A stretch of DNA of 64,000 bases from Escherichia phage ECML-183-2. The DNA is taken from the sequence record OL631481.1, one strand, 5' to 3'. Positions 33,785 to 46,858 of this stretch are shown here, piece after piece (the first letter of the stretch is position 1; each line of letters starts with the position of its first letter). Position numbers and translations under genes: made by a program. The notes under the pieces are model-generated. The model was not told the origin of the DNA, did no database searches, and saw only the letters and a list, made by a program, of their open reading frames with translations.

Positions 33785-34015
33785 TTAATAGACAATTTCA
33801 TATTCGTGAGGAAAGAAAACATAATCTTCCCCTTCTCGTGCATCTATCTCGTCCCAAAACCATTCCTGCACTTCCATCATCTTCGAGAATCGCACATGAG
33901 CAAGCCCACTGTATTCCACAGTAGCTTCCAACACAAGTGGAAATTTTGCATGGACAAGTCCTTTATAACCACCATCATTCTCAATACGAATTTTCATGCG
34001 TTTCATGTTATGCAT
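33785..34015 (-). CDS. hypothetical protein (76 aa), paralog of 29450..29671
   Basis: Shared EDYVFF segment. Confidence 0.45.
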   Translation of the reverse strand: MHNMKRMKIRIENDGGYKGLVHAKFPLVLEATVEYSGLAHVRFSKMMEVQEWFWDEIDAREGEDYVFFPHEYEIVY

Positions 34016-34217
34016 CCTTCAGACCCTTAATAAAGTAACGACCAACCGGATTCCCTCGGAAGTATTCGTTAATGAAATCGATAACACACGTTTCACTGCC
34101 TGTCACAACGGACGGCTTAAAGTTTTGGAATTCTACAGCTACACGGCTGGCTTTAGCCAGTGCTTGCACACGTGTAGGATCAGTCAAGAACATTGTGACA
34201 GTTTTCAAATTCTTCAT
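34008..34217 (-). CDS. hypothetical protein (69 aa)
   Basis: ORF track. Confidence 0.45.
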   Translation of the reverse strand: MKNLKTVTMFLTDPTRVQALAKASRVAVEFQNFKPSVVTGSETCVIDFINEYFRGNPVGRYFIKGLKDA

Positions 34218-34266
34218 TTCATCTCCTCATTGGCTATCTGTTATGTCGTCCATTATACAAACATCT

Positions 34267-34605
34267 TTATTCAATGCAAGCATTATTTGCATCTTCAATG
34301 CGATCTTTCACCCACTGAAGACGTAACTCGTTGGTATGACACGCTAAACCTATGCACTCTGAAAGGTAATCCATGCAATCTGCATTAAACGGGAAATTGT
34401 AATCTAGTCCTGCACCAATAAACTGGGATTTCATCTCTTGTTGTAGACGAGGTAACAGTTCATCAGGGTATGTTCCCTCTACATACTTAATCAAACATAT
34501 GCACAAACCACTCGTTGTGTGACCTTCTACCTCACCAGCAAGCCAAGCTTTGTAAAACTTCATTAGACGTAAACTACTTAACGGAACATTTTTACTCTCT
34601 TGCAT
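34267..34605 (-). CDS. member of six-copy paralogous family
   Basis: LMKFYKAWLAGEVEG ... NFPFN ... CHTNELRLQWVKDRIE; GAGGAG RBS. Confidence 0.5.
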   Translation of the reverse strand: MQESKNVPLSSLRLMKFYKAWLAGEVEGHTTSGLCICLIKYVEGTYPDELLPRLQQEMKSQFIGAGLDYNFPFNADCMDYLSECIGLACHTNELRLQWVKDRIEDANNACIE

Positions 34606-34944
34606 GACAATCTCCTCTCATCGTTAGCCATCTTTCATGGCAATCATCAATCACCAACATCATACGATCAATCTTAAGGAATTACAATCGAATTATCATA
34701 GGGGATTCCTATCAATTATCCCATATATACCGATTATTTTTGACACCCCATTCTTGTATAAAAAGTAACCCAAAATATCCACGGGGAGAGATTATTTCGA
34801 CACACCCTGTTTCATGGCAATCATGGCAAGAATATCTAATAGAATCAATATCATATGGCAAAAATCATGGCGCATACGTAAGAAGTGCTTAACGCGAATT
34901 TTCGGGCCGTCAGGTCCACGCAGCGACAATTCCCAAATATCATG

Positions 34945-34967
34945 CGAATGAGAATAATTATCATTCG
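34945..34967. promoter_or_regulatory. Fur-box-like palindrome
   Basis: cgaatgagaataattatcattcg; near-perfect dyad, ~13/15 match to TGATAATCATTATCA. Confidence 0.3.
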
Positions 34968-35126
34968 TATTCAATGACTTATGCAAGGCTCATGCCAACA
35001 TAGCGACAAGGTGGGCCACCTGATTATAAATCACACAAACACTTATTTATCAATGGTTTGGCAACTTCATCATATGACGGAACAATGTCAACTAATCCCG
35101 CTCATGACAGACGGACTATTATTTAT

Positions 35127-35145
35127 ATGAGAATGATTATTATTT
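35127..35145. promoter_or_regulatory. Fur-box-like site
   Basis: atgagaatgattattattt. Confidence 0.25.
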
Positions 35146-35379
35146 AAACGTTTATTAACATATAAACTAAAATAAATCAAGAATTTTCTGATTTTATTTA
35201 CGTTTAAGAGAAGGTGCTCAACATCCTACCGGATCGCCGTTGGCAATCCTCGGATATTTACGCCCCCATGATTAAGGTTTATCTCTTTTATAGCTCAACA
35301 TTCCCGCCTGTGGCGGTAACATTTCGCCCCCAAAATTATTGACTTTTATTCTATTATGTGCATAGTGTGCAATGTATCG

Positions 35380-35397
35380 GAATGATGATAATCATCC
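35380..35397. promoter_or_regulatory. Fur-box-like site
   Basis: gaatgatgataatcatcc; ~13/14 match to ATAATGATAATCAT. Confidence 0.3.
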
Positions 35398-36181
35398 TCC
35401 CATTGCCCCCATAATTATTGCCATGCTAATTGTTTCATTACGTAATTATTACAATGACTATTGTTATTGCGCTAATGTTATGATCTTGGTAATTACATAT
35501 AATGCTAATAATAAGCCAGCGCAATAAGTGTAAGCGTCATTACGCTTGCAATTATTGCAAGCTACGCAGTAACAAGAAATAACCATCACCGATGGTTATG
35601 ATTGTTGGGGTGTAGTTGGCTTATTATTAGCTCGCTATGTGTCCGGCATAGCGTGCTAATGATGACTCTGTGAATGATTCGTTTTGTAATGATTTCATTC
35701 AGGCACTATTTTGCTAATAGTTATTATTTTAATGGTTTCGTTTGTTATTGTTCGTTAGTTGGTTGTTTTGTCGTGTTATCGTTATTTTGCTTAGTATTTA
35801 TCATGGTTTGATTGTTTGTCGTTATCAATCATCTTGCTATTATTCCTTTGATTATGATTAGTTTGCTTATTGTTTTATGTTGTTTGTTGGTTAGTTGTTG
35901 CGAACTATTATCAACATTATAATTATGCGCTTATATTGCATAGATAATCATGGGTAGATGATAATGGTTATCATTGCACTAGAAAGGAGGTAAAAGGGTG
36001 TTTTTGATGGTTTGTTGTTGGTTGTTGATCGATTTTAACCGCTCTAAATAGCTCTCTAACAGCCTGTTGCCCTGGGATGTATGGTTATTCGTTTAATGGT
36101 CGATTAGCTCGATACCGTGATTTATTCAGTTTTGTTCTGTGTCGGTTTTTCATAGGCGAAAGCTATCAACATTGTTCGGGC

Positions 36182-36208
36182 AAAAAGAAAGGGCGCTTTG
36201 TGCGCCCT
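36182..36208 (-). terminator. rho-independent terminator closing the cassette array
   Basis: rc reads AGGGCGC-loop-GCGCCCT + TTTCTTTTT. Confidence 0.6.
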
Positions 36209-36223
36209 GGTATGAAATGTTAT

Positions 36224-36607
36224 TTACTGATAAGCTGGATCGTTTGTTATATCAATCCAATGAGATAAATTAATTTTATTTTTTGCTTTCATTTTCTCGA
36301 TCAAACGTTCGGCTAATGTCTCGGAACGAATATAAACGTTTTCGCTAAAATCTTGCCCCGTTTCTTCGTCGATCATCTCACGATATTCGATTTTTCCGAT
36401 AAACGCGTGATTCAGCGCATAAGTTTTACCCGTGTACCAGTTATGCAAATGGATCTCACATTTATAATCATCGCTATACCCTTCGGTTGTTCTAACTTCA
36501 ACCAGGTCGCCTTTAAACACTGATAAGCACCACATAGGATCACGGTCTACAGCGCCGTTAAAGTCTTTACCGTTTACAGTCGCTGCCAGGTTGATGATAT
36601 TGCTCAT
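36224..36607 (-). CDS. hypothetical protein (127 aa)
   Basis: Track ORF trimmed to ATG after promoter; N-terminal track extension runs through leader. Confidence 0.5.
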   Translation of the reverse strand: MSNIINLAATVNGKDFNGAVDRDPMWCLSVFKGDLVEVRTTEGYSDDYKCEIHLHNWYTGKTYALNHAFIGKIEYREMIDEETGQDFSENVYIRSETLAERLIEKMKAKNKINLSHWIDITNDPAYQ

Positions 36608-36653
36608 GGTGATTCCTCGTTTACCGTTTAAAATGATTTGCCCTACGTGATAA

Positions 36654-36682
36654 ATAATAATGCAAGCGTGATCCGGTGTCAA
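36654..36682 (-). promoter_or_regulatory. sigma70-type early promoter (first cassette of array)
   Basis: rc reads TTGACA - 17 bp - TATTAT. Confidence 0.5.
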
Positions 36683-36856
36683 TAGGTAAAATTGTAAAGA
36701 TTTGATAGTTTGTTCCTTTGATGTTTTGTTGTTTGATAGGCGTTAGTTATCAATATATAGCGGGGTCTTCCGGTGATTATCTTCCCCTGCTCCCAGGTGC
36801 CGCCCGTTCAATAAGTATAACAAAAAATAGGACTATTGCAAGCCCTATTTATTATC

Positions 36857-36991
36857 TTAAAACCAGGTGCCAACCGTTTCCAATAGGTCACTGACTACAA
36901 GGACAACACTGATCAGCACATGTTCAACCATGAAAGGGATAAGCGCCAGCGTTGCTACTACGATCCCCATTGTGATGATTACCTTTCTCAT
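36857..36991 (-). CDS. small membrane protein (44 aa)
   Basis: Not in ORF track; hydrophobic; no clear RBS; coordinates hand-derived. Confidence 0.3.
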   Translation of the reverse strand: MRKVIITMGIVVATLALIPFMVEHVLISVVLVVSDLLETVGTWF

Positions 36992-37278
36992 TGTTGGCGG
37001 TTTACGTAAGCTTTACCGTTTACGGTCATCGGTATGGCCTCAAGGTCTGGATCTTCCTTAAGGTCGCGTGCAAGCTCACCGCAGCGGATACCCTCGAATC
37101 CGTAGTACTCTGTTGTGCCGTCCTGGAAAGTTTTAGCGGCAAGGCATAGGCGATAATTAACGCCGATCCGGTTTATTGCGTTGATATCGGTTAGCGTGAT
37201 GGATTCTGGCAACTCATTAGCCAGTACAGGCGCGTTAATACCAACAACCAGGGCAACTACTGCGATCATCTTTTTCAT
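36988..37278 (-). CDS. secreted protein with signal peptide (96 aa)
   Basis: MKKMIAVVALVVGINAPVLA signal-peptide-like. Confidence 0.5.
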   Translation of the reverse strand: MKKMIAVVALVVGINAPVLANELPESITLTDINAINRIGVNYRLCLAAKTFQDGTTEYYGFEGIRCGELARDLKEDPDLEAIPMTVNGKAYVNRQQ

Positions 37279-37332
37279 GCGTCTATCCTCTTCCTATTGC
37301 GTTTAATGGGGCGTTACCGCCCCGCTTATGGT

Positions 37333-37569
37333 TTATTGATTGATGTTATGATGAAAGTTATTTTCTTCAATAGCTTTTAAAATAAAAGCCGTGATCGCTT
37401 TCGTGTCTACTTGTTCGAACGTATCAGAATAAGCCCAATAATAATCATCCCCTACTTTCGGCGGGTAAACCTGGACAAGGAGATCGCCACCTGGTTGATC
37501 TATAAGCTCAACATGTAAGCCGGATGATTCAGCGGTTTTAACGGCGTTTAATACTGTTGCAATACTCAT
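37333..37569 (-). CDS. hypothetical protein (78 aa)
   Basis: ORF track; GC hairpin 37307-37322 downstream. Confidence 0.5.
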   Translation of the reverse strand: MSIATVLNAVKTAESSGLHVELIDQPGGDLLVQVYPPKVGDDYYWAYSDTFEQVDTKAITAFILKAIEENNFHHNINQ

Positions 37570-37613
37570 AATCTTTTCCTTTCTGATGTGGGGCGTTGCC
37601 GCCCCTTTGTTGA

Positions 37614-37913
37614 TTAGATCGCTGTTTCCAGTAGTTCGGCTAACGTCTTACCGCCTGATAGTTGGTCTAACGTTTGCTCTTCTGGCAAGAAATTAGCTGA
37701 TATTAATCCGACTTGATTTCCTTTGTGCCAATTAGCTTGACGGATGATTCCATCCTTTAAAGATTTTACCGCCATTGTGCAACCGTCGCCAAATGATTCA
37801 TTTTTATGATCCATTACTTCATAAGCGCCCAGCTTGCTGCTGTTAGGCACCATTAACGCGAATACATCACCAACAACCAGCTTTTCTACGGTAACAATAG
37901 CGATAGTTTCCAT
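37614..37913 (-). CDS. hypothetical protein (99 aa)
   Basis: ORF track; GC hairpin 37590-37605 downstream. Confidence 0.5.
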   Translation of the reverse strand: METIAIVTVEKLVVGDVFALMVPNSSKLGAYEVMDHKNESFGDGCTMAVKSLKDGIIRQANWHKGNQVGLISANFLPEEQTLDQLSGGKTLAELLETAI

Positions 37914-37930
37914 TTTACTTTCCTCATTAT

Positions 37931-37986
37931 CGGCGGCACCATTGCCGCCCTACGCATTAAATATAAGTTATCTAAGAGATTAGATC
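37931..37986 (-). promoter_or_regulatory. PeSL-like cassette (early promoter + 5' stem-loop)
   Basis: rc: TTGATC-17-TATATT then GGCGGCA-ATGG-TGCCGCC hairpin. Confidence 0.5.
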
Positions 37987-37991
37987 AAGGA

Positions 37992-38183
37992 TTATTTTGT
38001 AAAGATTACAGCTTCATCAAAATTTTCAACATAGTAAGCAAGCTCTTCATTTGCTGCAACCATTCCTAAAAGTTGGCTATAAGATAAACCTTTGATCCCT
38101 TCCTCGTTGTTTAATGCTTCGATGATTTCATCAACGGGCGCAAAAAACATGTTATTCGATTCCAGGTAGGAGATGGTTTTCAT
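37992..38183 (-). CDS. hypothetical protein (63 aa)
   Basis: ORF track; own cassette upstream. Confidence 0.5.
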   Translation of the reverse strand: MKTISYLESNNMFFAPVDEIIEALNNEEGIKGLSYSQLLGMVAANEELAYYVENFDEAVIFTK

Positions 38184-38204
38184 AATGTTTACCTTTTTCG
38201 GGGA

Positions 38205-38260
38205 GCGGCACCATTGCCGCCCTACGTGGTAAATATTAGCACACTGGCGATCTGTGTCAA
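38205..38260 (-). promoter_or_regulatory. PeSL-like cassette
   Basis: rc: TTGACA-16-TAATAT then GCGGCA-ATGG-TGCCGC hairpin. Confidence 0.55.
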
Positions 38261-38266
38261 TACTTT

Positions 38267-38653
38267 TTATTCAATATAAATCAAATTATCTTCACCAATG
38301 TAAGCCGACACGTTCGGCATAAACTTAGCTGCATTGGTTAGGCGGTTCGCCGTGTTAGTGGTGTATATTTCAGGGCGATCCCAAAAGCCTACGCCGTGAC
38401 CGTTACGGGTAAAATGTAAATCATTCCCGATCTGGTTGGCTGTTGCGCCGTCGCTCATTGCCTCAGAGATAGCGGCAAGATTAGCATTAATAAAGGCTGT
38501 TACATCCTGGGCGATCCGTTGATGGGCTTGATCTGAAAAATCATAATCAGTCATGTCATCTATAAAATTACCTTCATGATCCCTTGCGGATTCAGCAAAA
38601 ATAAAGGCTTCTTTATAACCGTTGATGATTTCAATAATGATTTCTGTTTTCAT
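38267..38653 (-). CDS. hypothetical protein (128 aa)
   Basis: ORF track; conserved-looking GHGVGFWDR segment, family unknown. Confidence 0.5.
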   Translation of the reverse strand: MKTEIIIEIINGYKEAFIFAESARDHEGNFIDDMTDYDFSDQAHQRIAQDVTAFINANLAAISEAMSDGATANQIGNDLHFTRNGHGVGFWDRPEIYTTNTANRLTNAAKFMPNVSAYIGEDNLIYIE

Positions 38654-38874
38654 GCTGTACGCTCGACAATAATAATAGTTTGCGGGATCTCGTTTTCTAC
38701 TACTAACAAGGCTTTTTTCTGTGTGATAGATATTTTAACACGTTGTAAAGTAGCGGTGAAATCTTTCATTTCATTATGCGCGGACTTCGTGCAATGCCAG
38801 ATCTCAGGCTTACCAACTTGTAAGCCGCGTAAAAATTCCGTTTTGCCTGTTTTGTTCGTGATCATTTGTTTCAC
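38650..38874 (-). CDS. hypothetical protein (74 aa)
   Basis: ORF track. Confidence 0.45.
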   Translation of the reverse strand: MKQMITNKTGKTEFLRGLQVGKPEIWHCTKSAHNEMKDFTATLQRVKISITQKKALLVVENEIPQTIIIVERTA

Positions 38875-38875
38875 C

Positions 38876-38980
38876 TTAACCGATACCGTGGGAAGATAGG
38901 ATCATGTTAGCCATAGTTGCAACCACTCCAACCGATAACGCCAGGCCCACTATTACAACCGTGAAAATTTTCTCTAACAT
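38876..38980 (-). CDS. small membrane protein (34 aa)
   Basis: Track ORF trimmed to ATG with GAGGG RBS; upstream part is hairpin read-through. Confidence 0.45.
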   Translation of the reverse strand: MLEKIFTVVIVGLALSVGVVATMANMILSSHGIG

Positions 38981-38996
38981 GATTCTACCCTCATTA

Positions 38997-39059
38997 ATGG
39001 GCGTTGCACCATTGCCCCGCCCTACGTAATACACTTTACCAGATAACAAATTATTGTCA
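38997..39059 (-). promoter_or_regulatory. PeSL-like cassette
   Basis: rc: TTGACA-16-TAAAGT then GC hairpin. Confidence 0.5.
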
Positions 39060-39124
39060 AGGTTTATTTTACTTCCCAAACGGAAAATTCACTGCGTGGC
39101 GGGAAGTATTCCCCGCCTTATTAA

Positions 39125-39295
39125 TTACTCTTCATCGTCGCCGTTATAGTATTCAATGCCGTTTTCATCGGTTACGGTGATGTTAACGCCACCGATAGCA
39201 ACACGATCACGGGCAAACGTCATAGCTTCATTTAAATCTTCAGACCAAAAAATATTGTGACCTTTGCGCGATACATAAAACATAGTCGGGATCAT
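39125..39295 (-). CDS. hypothetical protein (56 aa)
   Basis: Track ORF trimmed to internal ATG; GC hairpin 39097-39116 downstream. Confidence 0.45.
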   Translation of the reverse strand: MIPTMFYVSRKGHNIFWSEDLNEAMTFARDRVAIGGVNITVTDENGIEYYNGDDEE

Positions 39296-39318
39296 GATTT
39301 GTTTCTCTTCTGTTGTGA

Positions 39319-39379
39319 GCGGTGGACCATTCCGCCGCCCTATGTGGTAAACTTTACTACGTTGTTTGCCTGTTGTCAA
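39319..39379 (-). promoter_or_regulatory. PeSL-like cassette
   Basis: rc: TTGACA-17-TAAAGT then GGCGG-loop-CCGCC hairpin. Confidence 0.5.
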
Positions 39380-39380
39380 A

Positions 39381-39665
39381 TTATTTTTTAATGTTTTGCC
39401 CTACAAAATTGATCACTTCCTTAAGCTGTCTCTCTGTCATGATCGTACCTGGTAACTCTTCTTTAATTTCTTCCGGTAAATAGATATTACCGCGCCAGGT
39501 TAACAAACAACCGTTTTGATCTTCGCAGATAGAATAAGAAAACATCCACTCGCAATCATTTTCAAGCTCCCAAAAACACAAAAAGTCTTCTTTCCCTAAG
39601 TTTTCAACGGTTAAACATAATCCGCGACGTGCTGCATAATTAGTCAGGCTTTTTGTGATTTTCAT
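39381..39665 (-). CDS. hypothetical protein (94 aa)
   Basis: Track ORF trimmed to internal ATG. Confidence 0.5.
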   Translation of the reverse strand: MKITKSLTNYAARRGLCLTVENLGKEDFLCFWELENDCEWMFSYSICEDQNGCLLTWRGNIYLPEEIKEELPGTIMTERQLKEVINFVGQNIKK

Positions 39666-39686
39666 GATTTTTCTCTCTTCTTGTGA

Positions 39687-39742
39687 GCGGCACCATTGCC
39701 GCCCTACAAGATACATATTATCAGACTAGGCGGACTTGTCAA
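39687..39742 (-). promoter_or_regulatory. PeSL-like cassette
   Basis: rc: TTGACA-16-TAATAT then GCGGCA-ATGG-TGCCGC hairpin. Confidence 0.55.
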
Positions 39743-39743
39743 A

Positions 39744-39854
39744 CTATTTTTTCTTTTTCTTTGCTTCCAACCGTCTAAGGTTACGGCTTGACTTATTTCG
39801 CAAGGCGCTTAGATCGTCGTACCCTTTCCATGCTTGCATATCTTTCGGATTCAT
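39744..39854 (-). CDS. small basic protein (36 aa)
   Basis: Not in ORF track; AAGGGG RBS; hand-derived coordinates. Confidence 0.3.
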   Translation of the reverse strand: MNPKDMQAWKGYDDLSALRNKSSRNLRRLEAKKKKK

Positions 39855-39863
39855 GTTATCCCC

Positions 39864-40025
39864 TTACTTGTTAGCCGGATCATATACCAGGACCGCGCCG
39901 CTTGCTTTCACGCTTTCCGCTTCATAGTTGCGCAGATCGTTTTCTGTAAGGTTGAGCGCGATCACTTCCTCGATCTCAACGTCAGCGGCAAGGGCGATCT
40001 CTTTGATAATGTCTGTTGTTTTCAT
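39864..40025 (-). CDS. small acidic protein (53 aa)
   Basis: Not in ORF track; AAGGTG RBS; hand-derived coordinates. Confidence 0.35.
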   Translation of the reverse strand: MKTTDIIKEIALAADVEIEEVIALNLTENDLRNYEAESVKASGAVLVYDPANK

Positions 40026-40035
40026 AGTACGCACC

Positions 40036-40155
40036 TTATAAGATGATTGATAAGATAGTGATAACGAAAGCGATTATACTGATGGCAAATGTCATCTTTT
40101 TACCTTCGGATACTGCCGGATTTTCTACCGTGTATTCTACTGTGTACTTGCTCAT
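40036..40155 (-). CDS. small membrane protein (39 aa)
   Basis: Not in ORF track; C-terminal hydrophobic helix; directly after cassette. Confidence 0.35.
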   Translation of the reverse strand: MSKYTVEYTVENPAVSEGKKMTFAISIIAFVITILSIIL

Positions 40156-40178
40156 CGTGTAATCCTCTCGTTTGCTTT

Positions 40179-40235
40179 GGGAACTATTCCCGCCGCCTTA
40201 TGAATTAAATATACACTATCTCAAAATGATTGCAA
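40179..40235 (-). promoter_or_regulatory. PeSL-like cassette
   Basis: rc: TTGCAA-16-TATATT then GGGAA-TAG-TTCCC hairpin. Confidence 0.5.
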
Positions 40236-40252
40236 GCCTTTTTCTAAATTAT

Positions 40253-40537
40253 TTATGCAGTAAACAAACCATCATTTACAACGGCGGCGATGATCTCCCG
40301 TGCCATTGATTCAGGGAAAGGGGCGCTATAGTCCTGGCTTGTCTCATCGGTATCAGTGATCCAATGATAAGCTAACGAGTAAAAGCCTTTACTAACTGTT
40401 TTCAGTGAGATGATGATCACTCGGTCAAGCTTATTGGTGAATGTTGCCGTTAATGTGTTACCCTCCTGCGTCATGTTGGACAAGTAAGCGGGATCATTAA
40501 TCAGGGAAAACATTAGCACGGTGTTAGCTTTACTCAT
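40253..40537 (-). CDS. hypothetical protein (94 aa)
   Basis: Track ORF trimmed to internal ATG; the track ATG lies inside the hairpin loop. Confidence 0.5.
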   Translation of the reverse strand: MSKANTVLMFSLINDPAYLSNMTQEGNTLTATFTNKLDRVIIISLKTVSKGFYSLAYHWITDTDETSQDYSAPFPESMAREIIAAVVNDGLFTA

Positions 40538-40557
40538 GATTGCATCCTCAAAGGGGC

Positions 40558-40612
40558 GCGGCACCATTGCCGCCCTACACGATAACTATAACACAATGTA
40601 AAACAGGATCAA
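40558..40612 (-). promoter_or_regulatory. PeSL-like cassette
   Basis: rc: TTGATC-16-TATAGT then GCGGCA-ATGG-TGCCGC hairpin. Confidence 0.5.
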
Positions 40613-40815
40613 CCTTTATTTTTCCACGGTGTCAGCTTGTTAATCATTGGTGATAAATAGCGTTTACCAACGTAAAACAGTACGCCAACTGATGCAACGG
40701 CGGCGATCTCATGTAAGGAGGAAGGTCGCGCGGTGTCATAATAGGTACCAATAATAGCAATAGCGGCTACTGCGGCAATGTCTGTAATAATTTTTTCTTG
40801 TTTTGCGGTGATCAT
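40609..40815 (-). CDS. small membrane protein (68 aa)
   Basis: Track ORF trimmed to internal ATG; two hydrophobic segments. Confidence 0.5.
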   Translation of the reverse strand: MITAKQEKIITDIAAVAAIAIIGTYYDTARPSSLHEIAAVASVGVLFYVGKRYLSPMINKLTPWKNKG

Positions 40816-40838
40816 AATATTTACCTTTTTGTATGGTG

Positions 40839-40895
40839 GGGGAACTATTCCCCGCCTGATGTAATACAGTTTAACAGGTCCGGTTATGGTGTCAA
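40839..40895 (-). promoter_or_regulatory. PeSL-like cassette
   Basis: rc: TTGACA-15-TAAACT then GGGGAA-TAG-TTCCCC hairpin. Confidence 0.5.
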
Positions 40896-40901
40896 CCACT
40901 T

Positions 40902-41087
40902 TTAAAGATATTTTATATTGATAACGTTTTCAGGTTTAACCTTGTTGTGATGTGCATCAACATAGATCAAACCATCGTCAGAAAAGCCCAGGATCACGCC
41001 CTGCGCAATAAAACCGTATTCGTCACGGTAACGCACGGCTATTTTTAACGTTGCGTTGTAGGCTGTTTTAAGCTCGTTTAAAGTCAT
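40902..41087 (-). CDS. hypothetical protein (61 aa)
   Basis: ORF track. Confidence 0.45.
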   Translation of the reverse strand: MTLNELKTAYNATLKIAVRYRDEYGFIAQGVILGFSDDGLIYVDAHHNKVKPENVINIKYL

Positions 41088-41108
41088 TTTTGTTTATCCT
41101 CTACATGT

Positions 41109-41136
41109 AAAAAGAAAGGGCGCTTGGTGCGCCCTT
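41109..41136 (-). terminator. rho-independent terminator inside the array
   Basis: rc reads AAGGGCGC-ACCAA-GCGCCCTT + TCTTTTT. Confidence 0.6.
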
Positions 41137-41142
41137 GTTATG

Positions 41143-41289
41143 TTAATCCTCTAAATCCATCCAATTATATTTGTCACTCTTCCCGCGCTTTGTTTTATTA
41201 CGCTTGTCGCCTTTTCGGATCACTTCCTCGTTCCAGGCCTTGCGGATCTTGGAAGATTGAATTTTTTCTGCGCGATTAGATGTATTCAT
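41143..41289 (-). CDS. small basic protein (48 aa)
   Basis: Not in ORF track; AAGAGGA RBS; Lys/Arg-rich. Confidence 0.4.
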   Translation of the reverse strand: MNTSNRAEKIQSSKIRKAWNEEVIRKGDKRNKTKRGKSDKYNWMDLED

Positions 41290-41309
41290 TTTGTTTCCTC
41301 TTTATATGA

Positions 41310-41362
41310 GCGGCACCATTGCCGCTATATTATTAATTTAAACTGTTTTGTAAAATTGTCAA
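41310..41362 (-). promoter_or_regulatory. PeSL-like cassette
   Basis: rc: TTGACA-16-TAAATT then GCGGCA-ATGG-TGCCGC hairpin. Confidence 0.5.
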
Positions 41363-41368
41363 GGTTTA

Positions 41369-41722
41369 TCATTGATAAGAGCAAGCAAGGATCACGCCTG
41401 CAATATAAAGCCAATAATTTTCCCTTTCTCGTTGGATTTTATCATCGCTGCTATTCTCTTTAATGTATCCCCAGGATGTTAACAGGCGATCAATTTCCCA
41501 ATATTCGAAAGCGATATTGATATCTGATGGCAAGCCTTGTAACCATGATGCAAGTGCTTTAACAATACTATAATTAAAACGTGATTGGTTATCAGGGTAC
41601 CAGTACTCGGAATTAAAACGGTGCATCAATTCCGCGATCTTCTCTTTTTCGGTTGTAATACCGTAATCATTAAAATCGATAGCGGCAAGGATGTACTCTT
41701 TAATTGCATTTTGTGCTTTCAT
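41369..41722 (-). CDS. hypothetical protein (117 aa)
   Basis: ORF track. Confidence 0.5.
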   Translation of the reverse strand: MKAQNAIKEYILAAIDFNDYGITTEKEKIAELMHRFNSEYWYPDNQSRFNYSIVKALASWLQGLPSDINIAFEYWEIDRLLTSWGYIKENSSDDKIQRERENYWLYIAGVILACSYQ

Positions 41723-41741
41723 GGTCTTTCTCTCTTTTTGA

Positions 41742-41798
41742 GCGGGAACTATTCCCGCCCTACGTGTAACAGTTTACTAAAAATTAAATCCGTGTCAA
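41742..41798 (-). promoter_or_regulatory. PeSL-like cassette
   Basis: rc: TTGACA-16-TAAACT then GCGGGAA-TAG-TTCCCGC hairpin. Confidence 0.55.
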
Positions 41799-41801
41799 GC
41801 T

Positions 41802-42023
41802 TTATTTTGTTACTACCATTTGGTACCCTGTTTCAATGTTAGTAAATACTGTTATCCCGTCCTGGCGTTCACTCATTAGCATACAAGGCGCTAACATCCT
41901 TTCTACTGCCTTGCACTCATTGTAAACGGCGGTTATGTCTCCTGCGGCCTTGTCTTCTGTGGTGAATGTATCGTTTACGTAAACCTGACCAGCGACAACG
42001 GCGACAATAGCGAAAGTGATCAT
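41802..42023 (-). CDS. hypothetical protein (73 aa), shares MITFA 5' end with next-upstream gene
   Basis: ORF track; first ~20 nt of CDS plus RBS duplicated at 42245-42270. Confidence 0.5.
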   Translation of the reverse strand: MITFAIVAVVAGQVYVNDTFTTEDKAAGDITAVYNECKAVERMLAPCMLMSERQDGITVFTNIETGYQMVVTK

Positions 42024-42054
42024 GATGTTTCCTTGTTAGTAGTGGTTTCTCTTC

Positions 42055-42095
42055 TCTATAGCGCCCATTGTAAGGCGCTATAACGAAAAGTCAAC
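42055..42095 (-). promoter_or_regulatory. variant cassette (promoter overlapping TATAGCGCC hairpin)
   Basis: rc: TTGACT-16-TACAAT with 9-bp-stem hairpin overlapping. Confidence 0.4.
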
Positions 42096-42097
42096 GA

Positions 42098-42265
42098 TTA
42101 TTTTTTAAGGCTTAAAGTACCTAACTTGTCAGCATGACGCAGACCAGGGAAGATCCATTTGCCTGATTCATCTTTCACCGGGGCTTTAAGCGTAGCGCCC
42201 AGGTTGGCGGCGTTAACTTTACGTGCAACGTTGCGAGCGGCTTCACGGGTAGCGAAAGTGATCAT
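42098..42265 (-). CDS. small protein (55 aa) starting MITFA
   Basis: Not in ORF track; hand-derived; same 5' end as 41802..42023. Confidence 0.4.
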   Translation of the reverse strand: MITFATREAARNVARKVNAANLGATLKAPVKDESGKWIFPGLRHADKLGTLSLKK

Positions 42266-42289
42266 GATATTTTCCTCTTCTCTTTGTTA

Positions 42290-42351
42290 GGCGGTGGACC
42301 ATTCCGCCGCCTTGATGTAATACAGTTTACTTTATTTTTGCAGTATTGCAA
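42290..42351 (-). promoter_or_regulatory. PeSL-like cassette
   Basis: rc: TTGCAA-16-TAAACT then GGCGG-loop-CCGCC hairpin. Confidence 0.5.
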
Positions 42352-42357
42352 GCGGTT

Positions 42358-42570
42358 TTATGAAATAATCGTCAAAGTAAAATTGTAATCACCTGATTGA
42401 TACAATACTTTATCACCGAACGTTCCAACACGTTTAACATTGCAATATATACCCATAACACTTTTTACATCTTTGATATTCTTCACGCCTGTAATATCTT
42501 TATTAAAATGATCGTGATCAGAAAATAAAACTTGTTTTGCATTTTTCAACAAGGTGCGGATATTAGCCAT
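42358..42570 (-). CDS. hypothetical protein (70 aa)
   Basis: ORF track. Confidence 0.5.
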   Translation of the reverse strand: MANIRTLLKNAKQVLFSDHDHFNKDITGVKNIKDVKSVMGIYCNVKRVGTFGDKVLYQSGDYNFTLTIIS

Positions 42571-42595
42571 CGTGATAATCTCTCTTCTGTTGTGA

Positions 42596-42651
42596 GCGGC
42601 ACTATTGCCGCCCTACGTAATACAGTTTACTCTTTTTCTTTCCCGTGTCAA
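42596..42651 (-). promoter_or_regulatory. PeSL-like cassette
   Basis: rc: TTGACA-16-TAAACT then GCGGCA-ATAG-TGCCGC hairpin. Confidence 0.55.
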
Positions 42652-42660
42652 CAATCTTTT

Positions 42661-42888
42661 TCAGATTAATTCATCCAGGCATAACAGGCGATCAACGTTG
42701 AGATCGGTTAGGCTGATGGTTGGCACCTGGTAGGATTCGATGTACTCGACGCTCGCATATTCTCCAAAATTAGCAATAGCCCACTTATTCAAGATCTCAC
42801 ATACATCATTAATCTTTTTGTTTGTTACAACTGCTACAACCTGGGAACTGCCAACGGTGCCGGATACACGAACAATATTGATAGCCAT
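42661..42888 (-). CDS. hypothetical protein (75 aa)
   Basis: ORF track. Confidence 0.5.
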   Translation of the reverse strand: MAINIVRVSGTVGSSQVVAVVTNKKINDVCEILNKWAIANFGEYASVEYIESYQVPTISLTDLNVDRLLCLDELI

Positions 42889-42911
42889 AATCTTTAATCT
42901 CTCTGTTGTTG

Positions 42912-42970
42912 GCGGGAAACCATTTCCCGCCCTATGTGATACATCTTACACTAATTTTAAACGTTGTCAA
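42912..42970 (-). promoter_or_regulatory. PeSL-like cassette
   Basis: rc: TTGACA-16-TAAGAT then GCGGGAAA-TGG-TTTCCCGC hairpin. Confidence 0.55.
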
Positions 42971-42980
42971 CTGTTTTTTA

Positions 42981-43220
42981 TTACATTCCAACCATCGCGG
43001 CACGGATCGCAGTAGTGCTATATTTGAAACCGTCTGGAGTTTTATCTTGTCCAGTTTGTTCCAGAAAAAGCATCATATCCCGCGCCGCATCATTACGATT
43101 AGCATTAGCGTTAATAAAATCCAAGGCCAACCGATACAATGATTCATCGTTATTAATCCAAAGGCTTACATTCCAATGAGTTTTGTTTTTGTGACCGTTG
43201 TACATTTTAGATTTAGCCAT
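42981..43220 (-). CDS. hypothetical protein (79 aa)
   Basis: ORF track. Confidence 0.5.
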   Translation of the reverse strand: MAKSKMYNGHKNKTHWNVSLWINNDESLYRLALDFINANANRNDAARDMMLFLEQTGQDKTPDGFKYSTTAIRAAMVGM

Positions 43221-43244
43221 GATTTTTCTCTCTTTTTCAGTGAG

Positions 43245-43303
43245 GCGGGAAGTGTTCCCGCTCTCTATGTAATACAGTTTACTCTTTTTATTCGTGCTGT
43301 CAA
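43245..43303 (-). promoter_or_regulatory. PeSL-like cassette
   Basis: rc: TTGACA-16-TAAACT then GCGGGAA-CACT-TCCCGC hairpin. Confidence 0.55.
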
Positions 43304-43309
43304 TGCTTT

Positions 43310-43675
43310 TTATAAATCTTTTTTACGTTTTACATCGCTTGCATGACTGTATACAGTGATCCCATTGTCACGGCAAAAACGGGAAAGATACGCGCCGCGT
43401 GAAAATTCCTTGCCCTCAAGGTTGATAACCTTGCTAAATTCTTCCAGGGCGACGGTATCAAAATGATCACCATAGCCATATTGAAACGGAACGTTAACCA
43501 CCTCGATCAGTTTACCGCCGATCTCAACGTCAACCAGTAAAGAAAAATATGTGTTACCGTAGGACTGTTGAAACCAGCGACGGGCACTAATATGCACCGC
43601 CTCAATGCTGGATAATTCAATTTTAGCCGTGTTAGCCAGGGTAGCATAAGCGGAAACATTGATATTAATAGCCAT
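43310..43675 (-). CDS. hypothetical protein (121 aa)
   Basis: ORF track. Confidence 0.5.
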   Translation of the reverse strand: MAININVSAYATLANTAKIELSSIEAVHISARRWFQQSYGNTYFSLLVDVEIGGKLIEVVNVPFQYGYGDHFDTVALEEFSKVINLEGKEFSRGAYLSRFCRDNGITVYSHASDVKRKKDL

Positions 43676-43701
43676 GGTGTCACTCTCTCTTTTTGGTTAG
43701 T

Positions 43702-43753
43702 GGGAAGTATTCCCGATAAAAGTTATTATGCTTATACTATCACTCATTGTCAA
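43702..43753 (-). promoter_or_regulatory. PeSL-like cassette
   Basis: rc: TTGACA-17-CATAAT then GGGAA-TAC-TTCCC hairpin. Confidence 0.5.
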
Positions 43754-43772
43754 TAGTATAAGACTAAAACTT

Positions 43773-43952
43773 TTAACGATAATCATTATAGGCTTTATTG
43801 ACCTGGCGAATGTAACATTCGAAAGCAAGATCAATGTATTCGTATTCACGCACATAATCACCATAGGTCACTACATACATTTTTAAAGTTTCCTCATAAG
43901 CCAGGAGGATCGAATCTAAACCTATAATCTCAGTTTTTGCAATGATAGCCAT
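43773..43952 (-). CDS. hypothetical small protein (59 aa)
   Basis: Not in ORF track; AAAAGG RBS; hand-derived coordinates. Confidence 0.4.
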   Translation of the reverse strand: MAIIAKTEIIGLDSILLAYEETLKMYVVTYGDYVREYEYIDLAFECYIRQVNKAYNDYR

Positions 43953-43974
43953 GATGTTAACCTTTTATTGTTGG

Positions 43975-44029
43975 CGGCACCATTGCCGCCCTACGTGATA
44001 AACTATACCAGAAGTTTAAACAGTGTCAA
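43975..44029 (-). promoter_or_regulatory. PeSL-like cassette
   Basis: rc: TTGACA-15-TATAGT then GCGGCA-ATGG-TGCCGC hairpin. Confidence 0.5.
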
Positions 44030-44035
44030 CCGTTT

Positions 44036-44398
44036 TTATTCGTAAATTTTACCGCTTTCGGCCCATACCATAACGCGGCGCATACTATCCCAAGTGTTTT
44101 GATCCAGGTTTAAGCCGTGCAACTCTTCGGTACTTCCCAGACCAGGTACCGCTTTGTTGTAAGTCGCATATAAGCGCCCTTGATACTCATACGCCAGAGT
44201 AAGATCCGTTTGAATCATCTTTTTAAGCATAGCATTAAGCATCATATTAGCGGCATGTTGATCACGTTTTAGCGGTAACATGTCAATAAGGGCGCGATAA
44301 GCTGAAACATGAATATCAACCGTTTCACGTGGTAAATTTTTCATATCATCGCGGAAGGACACCAGGTTTAACATGATAGTATTGATTTGCTTGCTCAT
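44036..44398 (-). CDS. hypothetical protein (120 aa)
   Basis: ORF track; AAGGG RBS. Confidence 0.5.
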   Translation of the reverse strand: MSKQINTIMLNLVSFRDDMKNLPRETVDIHVSAYRALIDMLPLKRDQHAANMMLNAMLKKMIQTDLTLAYEYQGRLYATYNKAVPGLGSTEELHGLNLDQNTWDSMRRVMVWAESGKIYE

Positions 44399-44419
44399 TG
44401 TGTTACCCTTTTTTGTTTT

Positions 44420-44480
44420 GGCGGGGAAGTATTCCGCCGCCCTATGTGATACATCTTATCAGATTAAAAAACGTTGTCAA
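44420..44480 (-). promoter_or_regulatory. PeSL-like cassette
   Basis: rc: TTGACA-16-TAAGAT then GGCGG-loop-CCGCC hairpin. Confidence 0.55.
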
Positions 44481-44488
44481 GAATATTT

Positions 44489-44584
44489 TTAGAAAATAAT
44501 AGCCGCTACTACAATCCAAAATGGAACGGCTAGAATGATAGCGTTAATCGTTCCAACCGTCAAGCTATTTTCTTTATTAATCAT
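44489..44584 (-). CDS. small membrane protein (31 aa)
   Basis: Not in ORF track; AAGAGG RBS; hydrophobic C-terminus. Confidence 0.35.
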   Translation of the reverse strand: MINKENSLTVGTINAIILAVPFWIVVAAIIF

Positions 44585-44613
44585 TGTAAGCCTCTTGCAT
44601 AATTTCACTATGA

Positions 44614-44670
44614 GCGGCACCATTGCCGCCCTACGTGGTAAATATTATGCCAGTGGCGGCGATATGTCAA
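44614..44670 (-). promoter_or_regulatory. PeSL-like cassette
   Basis: rc: TTGACA-17-TAATAT then GCGGCA-ATGG-TGCCGC hairpin. Confidence 0.55.
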
Positions 44671-45224
44671 AGACTATTTTCAAAGTTTTCTAGTGCGATC
44701 CTTTTTTCTTCCTCTGTCGGCTGATAATCAGGAAAAGCATCAACACACAACAACGGCGGGATCTCTTCGTACTCTTCCTCTTCCGTTGTCTCCTCGTCTT
44801 CCTCCTGGGCTATGGCTGCAATTTTGGCTAATTTTCTTTCAGCTTGAATCAATTTACCATCAAGTACGTTTTTTGCCATGTTGTAAGCGGTCCAGGTGAT
44901 GCGCTTACTTTCCAGTGCTTGATCAAGCGCCGCTATCTTGCTGGGGTATTCATCCAGGACACGAAAAGCCGGATCAACTTTGTACAAAGGATTATCTTTC
45001 GCGCCGTCGCTCGCATCTTCCGCACTGGATAAATCAGCGTTACCATTTGCCAGCCAGCCAGGGCGCACATAACGCGCTTTTACGTTGCCGTTACTACGTG
45101 CTAATCTGTTACCTATTTGCTCACCACTATATCCCGTGGATTCATCGATAAGATGATCGGGAATGATGCGCGGATCATCTGCTTCATGTTTTACCCAAGA
45201 CTGGATCACATATTCGCGGCCCAT
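44667..45224 (-). CDS. hypothetical protein (185 aa), acidic C-terminus
   Basis: Track ORF trimmed to ATG; no cassette of its own, coupled to upstream gene. Confidence 0.5.
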   Translation of the reverse strand: MGREYVIQSWVKHEADDPRIIPDHLIDESTGYSGEQIGNRLARSNGNVKARYVRPGWLANGNADLSSAEDASDGAKDNPLYKVDPAFRVLDEYPSKIAALDQALESKRITWTAYNMAKNVLDGKLIQAERKLAKIAAIAQEEDEETTEEEEYEEIPPLLCVDAFPDYQPTEEEKRIALENFENSL

Positions 45225-45225
45225 A

Positions 45226-45483
45226 TTAACCACCTTTTTTCAACAATTGGCATACTTTAAAAAGACTTGCTGAATCCTTGCAAGGGTAGAAAGATGTACG
45301 ATAATCACGTACGCCAACCTTGCGGATCTCGATGTTCTCGCATGTTGTTTGATCAAAGATATTTATTTCATCACGCCCCCTTATATAAACATAGTGGGGA
45401 TGTATTAACGCATATTTTGCTAATCTGTAAAAAGCGTTATCTTTGAACGCGATCACGTGACCTTTTAATTTGATGTAAAACAT
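45226..45483 (-). CDS. hypothetical protein (85 aa)
   Basis: ORF track. Confidence 0.5.
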   Translation of the reverse strand: MFYIKLKGHVIAFKDNAFYRLAKYALIHPHYVYIRGRDEINIFDQTTCENIEIRKVGVRDYRTSFYPCKDSASLFKVCQLLKKGG

Positions 45484-45501
45484 TCTACCACCTTACAAAT
45501 A

Positions 45502-45556
45502 GCGGGAACTATTCCCGCTTTATGTAACATATTAACAAATTATTCGTTAATGTCAA
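45502..45556 (-). promoter_or_regulatory. PeSL-like cassette
   Basis: rc: TTGACA-16-TAATAT then GCGGGAA-TAG-TTCCCGC hairpin. Confidence 0.55.
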
Positions 45557-45559
45557 ACC

Positions 45560-45832
45560 TTAAAGCAAAAACGCTACATCTTGCGCTTTTAGTGTAGTAT
45601 CAACCATTTTCGGGCTTTTATAATCAACAAAGCGCGCGGTTTTTTCAATAGCGAAACCGAGATAATCTTGTTTATTGAATTTACATTCTTTCTTAAATGT
45701 TTCCCGCGCCACGGTGATCGCTGCGTCCAGGGATAAACGCCCGTCAATGTTGATATTTGCGAAAGATCCGCCACCGCTCATAGGTTTACCAGTGGTGCCA
45801 GCTACGATCATTGTTGCGCTATATGATGCCAT
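45560..45832 (-). CDS. hypothetical protein (90 aa)
   Basis: Track ORF trimmed to internal ATG. Confidence 0.5.
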   Translation of the reverse strand: MASYSATMIVAGTTGKPMSGGGSFANINIDGRLSLDAAITVARETFKKECKFNKQDYLGFAIEKTARFVDYKSPKMVDTTLKAQDVAFLL

Positions 45833-45857
45833 GATTATAATCTCTCTTCTGTTGTGA

Positions 45858-45918
45858 GCGGCTGGACCATTCCGCCGCCCTATGTGATACATCTTATCAG
45901 GTTGTTGTTTGTTGTCAA
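45858..45918 (-). promoter_or_regulatory. PeSL-like cassette
   Basis: rc: TTGACA-16-TAAGAT then GGCGG-loop-CCGCC hairpin. Confidence 0.55.
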
Positions 45919-45924
45919 TACTTT

Positions 45925-46122
45925 TTATTCTATTCCTGCAATTTGATTAACGCGCTTGCATTTTGTAGCGTGCTGGTCTTCTGTAATGACTCCCATTTCT
46001 AACAGGGAATCAATGAAAGATAAAACCGTTTCATGATCATCCTGGGGATGACTGAACTCAGTAAAACCGTTTACCACGACGCTGATTTGTCCTGCTTTCG
46101 CTACTATGTGCAATGTTGCCAT
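45925..46122 (-). CDS. hypothetical protein (65 aa)
   Basis: Track ORF trimmed to internal ATG with GGAG RBS. Confidence 0.5.
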   Translation of the reverse strand: MATLHIVAKAGQISVVVNGFTEFSHPQDDHETVLSFIDSLLEMGVITEDQHATKCKRVNQIAGIE

Positions 46123-46143
46123 GATTTTAACTCCAAATAATGA

Positions 46144-46200
46144 GCGGCACCATTGCCGCCCTACGTGGTAAATATTATGCCGCCACCTGGCGAACGTCAA
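46144..46200 (-). promoter_or_regulatory. PeSL-like cassette (last/upstream-most of array)
   Basis: rc: TTGACG-17-TAATAT then GCGGCA-ATGG-TGCCGC hairpin 46144-46159. Confidence 0.55.
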
Positions 46201-46309
46201 TCACTTTTTCAATCTTTTTTATTTTCTTTTTGCTTGCTATATATAAAAGAAAGGGCTATCATCTTTCTACCGCGCCAACCAGGGCGCACATCAAAGAAAG
46301 GGCGATACC

Positions 46310-46576
46310 ATGACAAATACTACATTACACCTTATGCACTCATTGGGCTGGCAAGGCGGCACGGTGCACCAGGTAGCAAGCGCAACGGGCTTAAAGGTTG
46401 AAACAGTTCTCAACCTGGGCGATCATAAGGTGGAAGAAATAGATCATTTTGATACGTTCGCAAATGGTTATCTATGGGCTTGCAGTGGCGGCGGGGAAAG
46501 CAAGATACCACCAGGGGCGCGGGGCGATATGTATTTTTGGTTAGGTGTCCTATCCTGGCAAGAAAACAAAAAATAA
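46310..46576 (+). CDS. hypothetical protein (88 aa) in GC-rich island
   Basis: Only plus-strand ORF in the minus block; weak RBS; local composition unlike surrounding DNA. Confidence 0.3.
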   Translation: MTNTTLHLMHSLGWQGGTVHQVASATGLKVETVLNLGDHKVEEIDHFDTFANGYLWACSGGGESKIPPGARGDMYFWLGVLSWQENKK

Positions 46577-46578
46577 TC

Positions 46579-46838: not shown

Positions 46839-46858
46839 AATGAGAATGATTATCATTT
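46839..46858. promoter_or_regulatory. Fur-box-like site
   Basis: aatgagaatgattatcattt; ~15/17 match to TGATAATGATAATCATT. Confidence 0.3.

Follow-up and report, generated by a model that had tools for sequence, protein, structure and literature searches.

At the sequence level, the genome of Escherichia phage ECML-183-2 carries palindromes that are indistinguishable from the Fur operators of enterobacteria. Seven such boxes lie in the window, the 64,000-nucleotide stretch of sequence record OL631481.1 analyzed here, and they are gathered at two places, one in and near the direct terminal repeat of the virion DNA and the other at the outer border of a large block of small genes. The explanation preferred here, held with about even confidence, is that the palindromes are operators for the Fe2+-Fur protein of the host, kept at fixed structural positions and not over early promoters. 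Fur boxes on phages have so far been known singly, each as the operator of a cargo gene in a prophage; the new element is the occurrence of operator arrays at the terminal repeat and at the early-block border of virulent genomes in three phage groups. The window derives from a Phapecoctavirus, a phAPEC8-like myovirus of the Stephanstirmvirinae with a genome of about 150 kb, and by megablast its positions 34000-48000 are approximately 96% identical to Escherichia phage tuntematon and to many other Phapecoctavirus genomes. Genes for both an aerobic and an anaerobic ribonucleotide reductase are present in the phage.

Likeness of the palindromes to Fur operators

The phage palindromes share the pattern aATGAGAATnATTaTCATt, the Fur box in its 7-1-7 form (TGATAATnATTATCA). 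Five of the box cores contain at most two mismatches to TGATAATnATTATCA, and just two further matches of this quality occur in the 64 kb. An E. coli-only Fur matrix, built from 14 sites in seven Fur-regulated promoter regions of K-12 that were picked by the textbook consensus, finds its top seven matches in the window at 46838, 34946, 46896, 35125, 35956, 46867, and, in an overlapping register, 46902. Scores of 15.1-22.6 bits were obtained for six boxes, as against leave-one-out scores of 3.9-19.0 bits for the E. coli training operators, and four of these boxes (22.6, 21.9, 19.1, and 18.1 bits) match or surpass the best chromosomal operators (maximum 19.0). The reciprocal scan gave a matching result. 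A matrix made from the seven phage boxes alone was run against 118 kb of E. coli K-12, comprising the ent/fep cluster, fhuA, the fec operon, and the segment from feoA to ryhB, and its top eight matches fall at ryhB, fecI, fepB-entC (three matches), fhuA, fecA, and fepA-fes. All eight known Fur-regulated regions are among the top 11 matches of this phage-only matrix, and Fur-regulated control regions make up 1.5% of the 118 kb sample.

Chance occurrence of AT-rich palindromes is ruled out by these reciprocal matrix tests together with dinucleotide-preserving shuffles, in which boxes of at least 15 bits were counted in 1000 shuffles of each flank of the small-gene block and in 100 of the window. 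The left flank holds three such boxes where 0.011 are expected, the right flank three where 0.003 are expected, and the whole window six where 0.07 are expected; the observed counts were reached by none of the 1000 shuffles of either flank and by none of the 100 shuffles of the window. The Fur-like palindromes reported in an earlier note on this DNA are accordingly present at their positions and non-random, and the comparison it had proposed, of Fur weight-matrix scores with those of shuffled DNA, places the window far above its shuffles. Four of the five sites which that note had listed are strong Fur boxes (18.1-22.6 bits). The fifth, at 35380-35397, is weak (2.7 bits in register), and the list lacked three good boxes: 35956-35976 (16.6 bits), 46867-46887 (15.1 bits), and 46925-46945 (12.4 bits).

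The frequency matrices of the phage and E. coli sites correlate with r = 0.94, a value that is partly circular since the phage boxes in the comparison were selected with the E. coli matrix, and both have the same tolerant, degenerate position 4. At this position the phage boxes favor TGAGAAT over TGATAAT, with G at 54% compared with 14% in the E. coli set, a preference that could point to a slightly different binding protein. When the box array was compared by BLAST with 5,426 E. coli genomes, three weak matches at E=4 and no others were returned; the likeness to Fur operators is one of motif and not of homology. Chromosomal Fur operators (ryhB, fecI, fhuA, fepB-entC, fepA-fes) have the same dyad geometry as the phage sites and the same conserved and tolerant positions. 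Unlike them, the phage sites lie in a terminal repeat and in a four-unit array with a 29-bp period, away from early promoters.

Placement of the boxes on the phage genome

The small-gene "cassette array" (36224-46200, minus strand), which comprises about 40 genes in the tuntematon annotation, forms the leftmost 12 kb of the linear molecule, and every one of its genes is read toward the left DNA end. The array contains 52 sigma-70 promoter-like sites, compared with 27.3 +/- 4.8 in shuffles. Of these, the 21 that match at 10/12 or better are all on the minus strand, mostly with a perfect TTGACA. Judged by this minus-strand excess of sigma-70-like promoters, the array is an early-gene block transcribed by host RNA polymerase. 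The left flank (34606-36223) is gene-free, and the right flank (46201-47384) is gene-free apart from one plus-strand gene for a protein of 88 amino acids (46310-46576), so the description of both flanks in the earlier note as free of genes holds nearly but not fully. Its observation that no sites lie inside the dense coding region is borne out, the E. coli-only matrix having no match of at least 12.5 bits within the small-gene array. Its proposal of iron-responsive control of the early region did not fare as well: a box is absent from all of the approximately 21 consensus sigma-70 promoters in the array, which argues that the early genes themselves would not be under Fur control. In a whole related genome of about 150 kb, a single match of at least 15 bits occurs outside the two clusters, and it is within a coding sequence. 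No known RNA family was detected in 34000-48000 at E<=1, and no tRNA gene was found in the 64-kb window.

The physical ends of the virion DNA correspond to a direct terminal repeat (DTR) of 328 bp at 34891-35218. The record of phage Schickermooser has at its two ends an exact repeat of 329 bp that maps to 34891-35218 at 98.8% identity, and in several related records the first or last nucleotide corresponds to 34891 or 35218. A terminal repeat of 328 bp has been reported for the Phapecoctavirus Schickermooser (Korf 2019). A long, T5-like repeat, hinted at by the 161-kb record of WPEC1, was rejected because that assembly is scrambled. The DTR contains two of the boxes. Box 1 (34946-34966, 21.9 bits; core TGAGAATAATTATCA at 34949-34963) has one mismatch to the 7-1-7 consensus and is situated 55 bp from the left physical end. 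phiWec179 and Justusliebigvirus retain the terminus, AACGCGA(A)TTTT, box 1, and the spacing of 50-55 nt between the two, and the DNA between terminus and box is not conserved there. Box 2 (35125-35145, 18.1 bits; core TGAGAATGATTATTA) lies 73 bp inside the right boundary of the DTR, and phiWec179, Paula, and PD211 have a box at the equivalent place. A minus-strand promoter over box 1 (TTGCAT-18-GATAAT) is present in the window and absent from phiWec179 and Paula, and it was discarded as a conserved element; no conserved promoter overlies either box of the DTR. The conserved distance of these boxes from the terminus points to an end-related role rather than to promoter control.

Box 3 (35956-35976, 16.6 bits; core TGATAATGGTTATCA) is located 1.07 kb from the left physical end and overlies the -10 element of a plus-strand promoter-like site, the two together spanning 35936-35976, with TTGCAT at 35936-35941, an 18-nt spacer, and GATAAT at 35960-35965. 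The geometry is the same as that of classical Fur-repressed promoters. Justusliebigvirus keeps the -35 hexamer, the 18-nt spacing, and the Fur box, and the letters of its box differ (AAATAAGAATGATTATCATTT, 19.8 bits compared with 16.6). Such turnover of sequence with retention of the box suggests that selection in this region acts on function rather than on sequence. Between the DTR and box 3 is the weak Fur-like site of the left flank (35380-35400), which agrees with the 19-mer consensus at 15/19 and has 2.7 bits in register as a 7-1-7 dyad; nothing of 9.5 bits or more is found nearby, and phiWec179 has no equivalent of this site at 11 bits or above. From box 3 a conserved non-coding block of about 240 nt (35972-36210, plus strand) extends to the bidirectional terminator at the end of the cassette array. 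Its mean column identity is 94% in four Phapecoctavirus genomes, including phiWec179, and about 70% in Justusliebigvirus. The block is possibly a Fur-controlled transcript, itself hypothetical. Two other candidates for this block were rejected, namely a structured RNA (unfavorable covariation term of 1.73; folding z-score of -1.9) and a 17-codon ORF behind a good Shine-Dalgarno sequence at 35985, the start codons of which are lost in phiWec179.

The interior array (46838-46945) consists of four Fur boxes, at 46838-46858 (22.6 bits), 46867-46887 (15.1 bits), 46896-46916 (19.1 bits), and 46925-46945 (12.4 bits), that follow each other at intervals of exactly 29 bp. The annotation of tuntematon marks it as no more than a "repeat_region". 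Measured from the left physical end, the array stands at 11.95-12.05 kb, where the early block of approximately 40 genes has its outer border, and it lies 58-160 nt downstream of a conserved plus-strand promoter-like module (46749-46830). This module has TTGCTT at 46749-46754, a 16-nt spacer, and TGtTATTCT with the -10 hexamer at 46771-46776, and the extended -10-like hexamer is followed by an invariant GAGACAAnCACCG..CCTGC. In an alignment of seven genera from two subfamilies the hexamers of the module are kept and the sequence of the spacer is variable. A structured RNA downstream of the module (46781-46862) was considered and dropped, the RNAalifold covariation term being unfavorable (0.1). 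On its other side the box array adjoins an AT-rich region (46957-47166) with a 72-nt direct repeat, the copies of which are at 46957-47028 and 47095-47166.

The same layout in other phages and in the T5 injection stop signal

The two-place layout of boxes, found in phiWec179, tuntematon, and Schickermooser, was also seen in Justusliebigvirus, the Vequintavirinae, and T5-like phages when part of each distant relative was scanned with the E. coli-only matrix. Among the Justusliebigvirus genomes, alia has the interior array, and in Paula and PD211 boxes were found close to the terminus and at the box-3 promoter. In the Vequintavirus HdK5 one group of boxes is at 9, 125, and 143, and a second, at 11436-11621, follows the small-gene array; the record starts with a terminal redundancy of 458 bp, and the first box is 8 bp from the record start. 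All related phages checked (alia, FBKp34, HdK5, GE_vB_MG, and pEa_SNUABM_55) have a box or array after the conserved module, and the interior site in this position extends to the Klebsiella phage FBKp34 and to members of Seunavirus and Henunavirus. When viral contigs were scanned for pairs of neighboring boxes, six more tandem arrays were recovered, with almost no other nucleotide similarity to the reference loci. One of these is carried by a contig of 56% G+C, within a gene-free gap of 650 bp.

BLAST of the interior array also matched T5-like phages. In T5 (110.8 kb), boxes that reach 13 bits are confined to position 230, close to the left end, and to 9551-9716, and the latter cluster is inside the annotated injection stop signal (9140-10149) and spans the first-step-transfer shear point, calculated as 9618 (Davison bioRxiv 10.1101/866236). 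The palindromes of the stop signal were sequenced in 1987 (Heusterspreute 1987), and the T5 elements have been listed as palindromes and DRC/DRE repeats with a function that is not known (Davison bioRxiv 10.1101/866236); as late as 2026 the mechanism of the stop was described in print as poorly understood. As in the window phage, the T5 injection stop signal (Repeat Region 3) contains a tandem array of the same palindromes. The arrays of T5-like and phAPEC8-like phages are built from the same unit, a 21-bp box and an 8-bp spacer, with a G+C-rich hairpin before the first box. T5 further resembles the window phage in that the array, some 8% into the genome, closes a host-takeover block read toward the DNA end, and in that one more box is found near the DNA end. 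As a share of genome length, the distance of the interior array from the end amounts to approximately 7.8-8.0% for T5, about 8% for the window phage, 8.2-8.3% for HdK5, and 9-9.5% for tuntematon, Schickermooser, and phiWec179. The two systems also differ. The terminal repeat of T5 is about 10 kb compared with 328 bp here, which leaves the interior array of the window phage outside the DTR. Unlike T5, the window phage is without TGTCGGATTTGCACA repeats and, in the window, without A1/A2 genes; neither of its flanks has DnaA boxes (TTWTNCACA), and its neighboring repeats are the 72-nt units, which are other than DRD.

No description of Fur boxes in T5, rV5-like, or phAPEC8-like phages was found in the literature searched, to which Davison 2015 did not belong, and none of Fur-box arrays at the termini or early-region borders of any virulent phage. 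The T5 preprint does not mention Fur (Davison bioRxiv 10.1101/866236), and the "fur" words examined in the rV5 genome paper do not denote the regulator. If the palindromes of the T5 injection stop are a Fur-box array, as their sequence suggests, an old puzzle gains a candidate host factor that is open to experiment. The broad-host-range rV5-like and phAPEC8-like phages used in therapy might then possibly sense the iron status of the host or have a staged entry like that of T5.

Host DNA-binding proteins and their operators have been met on phage genomes before. The stx1 promoter is an example of a Fur box on a temperate phage. Sites for IHF at cosB of phage lambda show a host DNA-binding protein in use at a place of genome-end processing, likewise at a fixed short distance from the cut sites; the protein and the motif differ from those considered here. 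Lambdoid phages likewise carry a Fur box ahead of sitABCD (Mathieu 2020 PMC6969025). In the temperate phages, as probably in the window phage, the operator on the phage is that of host Fur, and it is there a single operator at the promoter of a prophage cargo gene (moron). The window phage differs in having arrays at structural landmarks of a virulent genome and no iron-related cargo gene.

Candidate ligands and roles of the boxes

Occupancy of the phage boxes by Fur is probable. The identification with Fur is favored because of the reciprocal matrix tests, the shuffles, the operator-level scores, and the correlation of the two matrices with its common tolerant position, and also because the boxes recur in three phage groups and stand in tandem in otherwise unrelated viral contigs. 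The wider explanation as Fur operators is preferred because box 3 is retained despite turnover of its sequence, because the promoter-like module of seven genera keeps its hexamers around a variable spacer, and because the roughly 150 kb of a relative are without boxes elsewhere, the one match in coding sequence excepted. According to this proposal, entry of the DNA into an iron-replete cell would allow abundant Fur dimers to fill the near-consensus sites, and the filled boxes would form stable nucleoprotein blocks at the DNA ends and at both borders of the first 12 kb. At box 3 Fur may act as a classical repressor that occludes the -10 element. At the four-box array it may serve as a roadblock or insulator against the conserved plus-strand promoter-like module and against read-through at the border, and iron-poor cells would release the border transcripts. 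The transcripts from the two promoter-like sites (at box 3 and in the module at 46749) are hypothetical, and a transcriptional consequence of Fur at box 3 and at the four-box array is put forward tentatively. Even if Fur were to bind with little effect, the phage would offer a clean case in which binding sites of an abundant host protein are kept in fixed places.

A phage-encoded dimeric protein with Fur-like specificity, an alternative to Fur raised in the earlier note, would account for the preference for G at position 4, and most genes of the array are without known function. A candidate is the conserved 88-aa gene (46310-46576), which has its own promoter-like site and terminator and is 260 bp from the interior array. 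Its product resembles a helix-turn-helix regulator by eye. A confident structural model (pLDDT 94) has no DNA-binding neighbor, and indeed no significant structural neighbor of any kind, and the protein was rejected as such a regulator; a single-sequence model reached pLDDT 34, and there is no sequence match in the PDB. The gene was not found in box-bearing Vequintavirinae (HdK5 and two others) or in the T5-like stretches. Among the 20 ORFs of the array and its flanks no DNA-binding Pfam domain was detected. The window contains no homologue of T5 A1, A2, or dmp, and a tblastn search with all T5 first-step-transfer proteins matched an HNH endonuclease only. Across these 20 ORFs and the loci compared, no phage DNA-binding protein was found to travel with the boxes, and each of the three groups would need a mimic precise enough to select the E. 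coli Fur regulon. A phage binder of this kind is improbable. With three phage groups, no shared DNA-binding protein detected, and a motif that selects the Fur regulon, the ligand is most economically read as host Fur.

The main rival to transcriptional control by Fur is a structural role at the DNA ends or during DNA entry, in which the arrays would be the core of an injection stop or boundary signal of the T5 type. Bound to the interior array and to the box close to whichever end enters first, a host protein, Fur or one of the same specificity, would serve to mark, anchor, or pause the leading 8-9% of the genome with its early genes, and control of transcription would be secondary. The confinement of the T5 boxes to 230 and to the cluster within the stop signal, across the shear point, speaks for such a role, as do the similar fractional distance of the interior array from the end, the common 21+8 bp unit with its preceding G+C-rich hairpin, and the conserved distance of boxes from the terminus. 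High sensitivity to daunorubicin is common to vequintaviruses and T5-like phages, and the drug blocks the latter after first-step transfer. Against it, no report of two-step entry was found for rV5-like or phAPEC8-like phages, the 328-bp DTR places the interior array outside the terminal repeat, the flanks are without DnaA boxes and the window without A1/A2 homologues, and the fractional position varies from 7.7 to 9.5%. Moreover, a cytoplasmic protein on DNA that has already entered has no obvious means to halt further entry. On balance a structural role is unlikely, and its most specific form, in which a Fur-box array is the core of a DNA-entry checkpoint common to T5-like, rV5-like, and phAPEC8-like phages, is quite improbable. 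Under such a checkpoint the first 8-9%, with the host-takeover genes, would enter, and Fur on the array and on the box at the leading end would hold or organize this segment, either by pausing entry or by looping or anchoring the linear DNA. If it were true, a host factor of the T5 stop signal would be named and two-step injection extended to large myoviruses.

Fur titration and a part in packaging are, like the phage-encoded mimic, less likely than the structural role. Multicopy Fur boxes reportedly derepress the Fur regulon, which is said to be the basis of the Fur titration assay from Stojiljkovic's work of 1994. Replicated phage operators (seven per genome in hundreds of copies) might similarly act as a sink that titrates Fur and derepresses host iron uptake, the iron gained feeding iron-dependent phage enzymes. 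The match of the boxes in strength to the best chromosomal operators and the two ribonucleotide reductases encoded by the phage would suit a sink. A sink needs no fixed place, yet different genera keep the boxes at the same positions with respect to the termini and the border of the array. T5, moreover, destroys host DNA within minutes (from the annotation of A1), so that derepression would bring little gain, and still keeps the array. A Fur sink is accordingly given a low probability. Lowest of all is that of a packaging accessory, in which boxes just inside both DTR boundaries would help terminase to locate the cut sites or to bend the DNA there; Fur would then play the part of IHF at lambda cosB, or a terminase subunit would itself bind the boxes. 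The boxes 55 and 73 bp inside the DTR boundaries would be well placed for this, as would the first box of HdK5, so close to its record start, and the T5 boxes 230 and about 500 bp inside the boundaries; conservation of the terminus sequence and of the spacing between terminus and box is likewise in its favor. A packaging role leaves unexplained box 3 and also the strongest cluster, since no cut site is nearer to it than 12 kb. Direct reading of the sequence shows that both cut sites have the common motif GAAG(G)TGCT, distinct from the Fur boxes, and this motif is the better candidate for recognition by terminase.

Genome ends and the conserved block beside box 3

The physical ends of the genome fall within the window, at the direct terminal repeat (DTR, 34891-35218). 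The sequence immediately to the left of the start of the repeat, AAGAAGTGCTT/AACGCG (34880-34900), is similar to that at its right end, AAGAGAAGGTGCT/CAAC (35200-35222), a similarity that suggests GAAG(G)TGCT as a common terminase or nicking motif. The AACGCGA(A)TTTT terminus is retained in the related Phapecoctavirus phiWec179 and in Justusliebigvirus.

To the right of the DTR lies a non-coding block of 240 nt (35972-36210), which is 94% conserved, phiWec179 included, whereas the neighboring DTR region of that phage is only ~71% identical; in Justusliebigvirus conservation of the block is ~70%. On one side of the block is a promoter-like site over which a Fur box lies (box 3, 35956-35976), and on the other a bidirectional terminator; the block may encode a non-coding RNA under Fur control or act as a cis element.

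Small-gene array and the right flank

The array of small minus-strand genes ends with a member of the T4 gp30.8 family (36224-36682, minus strand; PF06019). Across 36200-46300, sequence analysis predicts approximately 21 promoters on the minus strand, about one for each small gene, in which a perfect TTGACA is combined with a spacing of 16-17 nt; many are followed by a terminator-like hairpin of their own. At the other border, the first gene past the right flank encodes a NADAR-domain protein (47385-47927, minus strand; PF08719).

Within the right flank, a module of ~80-110 bp (46749-46830 in the window) precedes the interior array of four Fur boxes and is retained in seven genera of the Stephanstirmvirinae and Vequintavirinae, two subfamilies with little other similarity at the nucleotide level. 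The module comprises -35/-10-like hexamers separated by a spacer of variable sequence and then an invariant GAGACAAnCACCG..CCTGC; no RNA covariation was found in it. Relative to the related phage tuntematon (L001, 16416-16465), the window carries a 50-bp segment of the interior array (46838-46887) in inverted orientation; the segment consists of the two leftmost boxes of this array and the spacer between them, and the inversion ends at the palindromic outer half-sites. Directly adjoining the box array is an AT-rich region (46957-47166) with a 72-nt direct repeat, the copies of which are 82% identical and 138 bp apart, as well as a partial third copy. These repeats hold the place of the DRD repeats of T5, although they are unrelated in sequence.

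Fur-like boxes in T5 and viral contigs

In T5 (L019), the dmp coding sequence contains a single strong Fur-like box (230-250; 15.6 bits) at a distance of 230 bp from the left end of the DNA molecule; apart from the boxes in the injection stop signal, no other match in the 110.8 kb scanned reaches 13 bits. Tandem arrays of three to six Fur-like boxes in units of 26-30 bp also occur in viral metagenome contigs (L026, 7030-7145; L025, L027, L028, L029, and L030), which have almost no nucleotide similarity to the reference loci used here; one such array, on a contig of 56% G+C, is within a 650-bp gene-free gap.

Questionable database records

When mapped to the window, the record of phage WPEC1 (PV659873.1, 161 kb; L004/L005) breaks up into a mosaic of segments, rearranged and in part inverted, and contains tandem duplications of 155 bp; it is probably an assembly artefact. 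The "Campylobacter phage" records A150, C3, and C7 (MG065639, MG065656, and MG065658), and likewise the Acinetobacter and Pseudomonas phage records ABPW7 and PsgM04F, are 70-97% identical in nucleotide sequence to coliphages of the phage genera considered here, and their host labels may be wrong.
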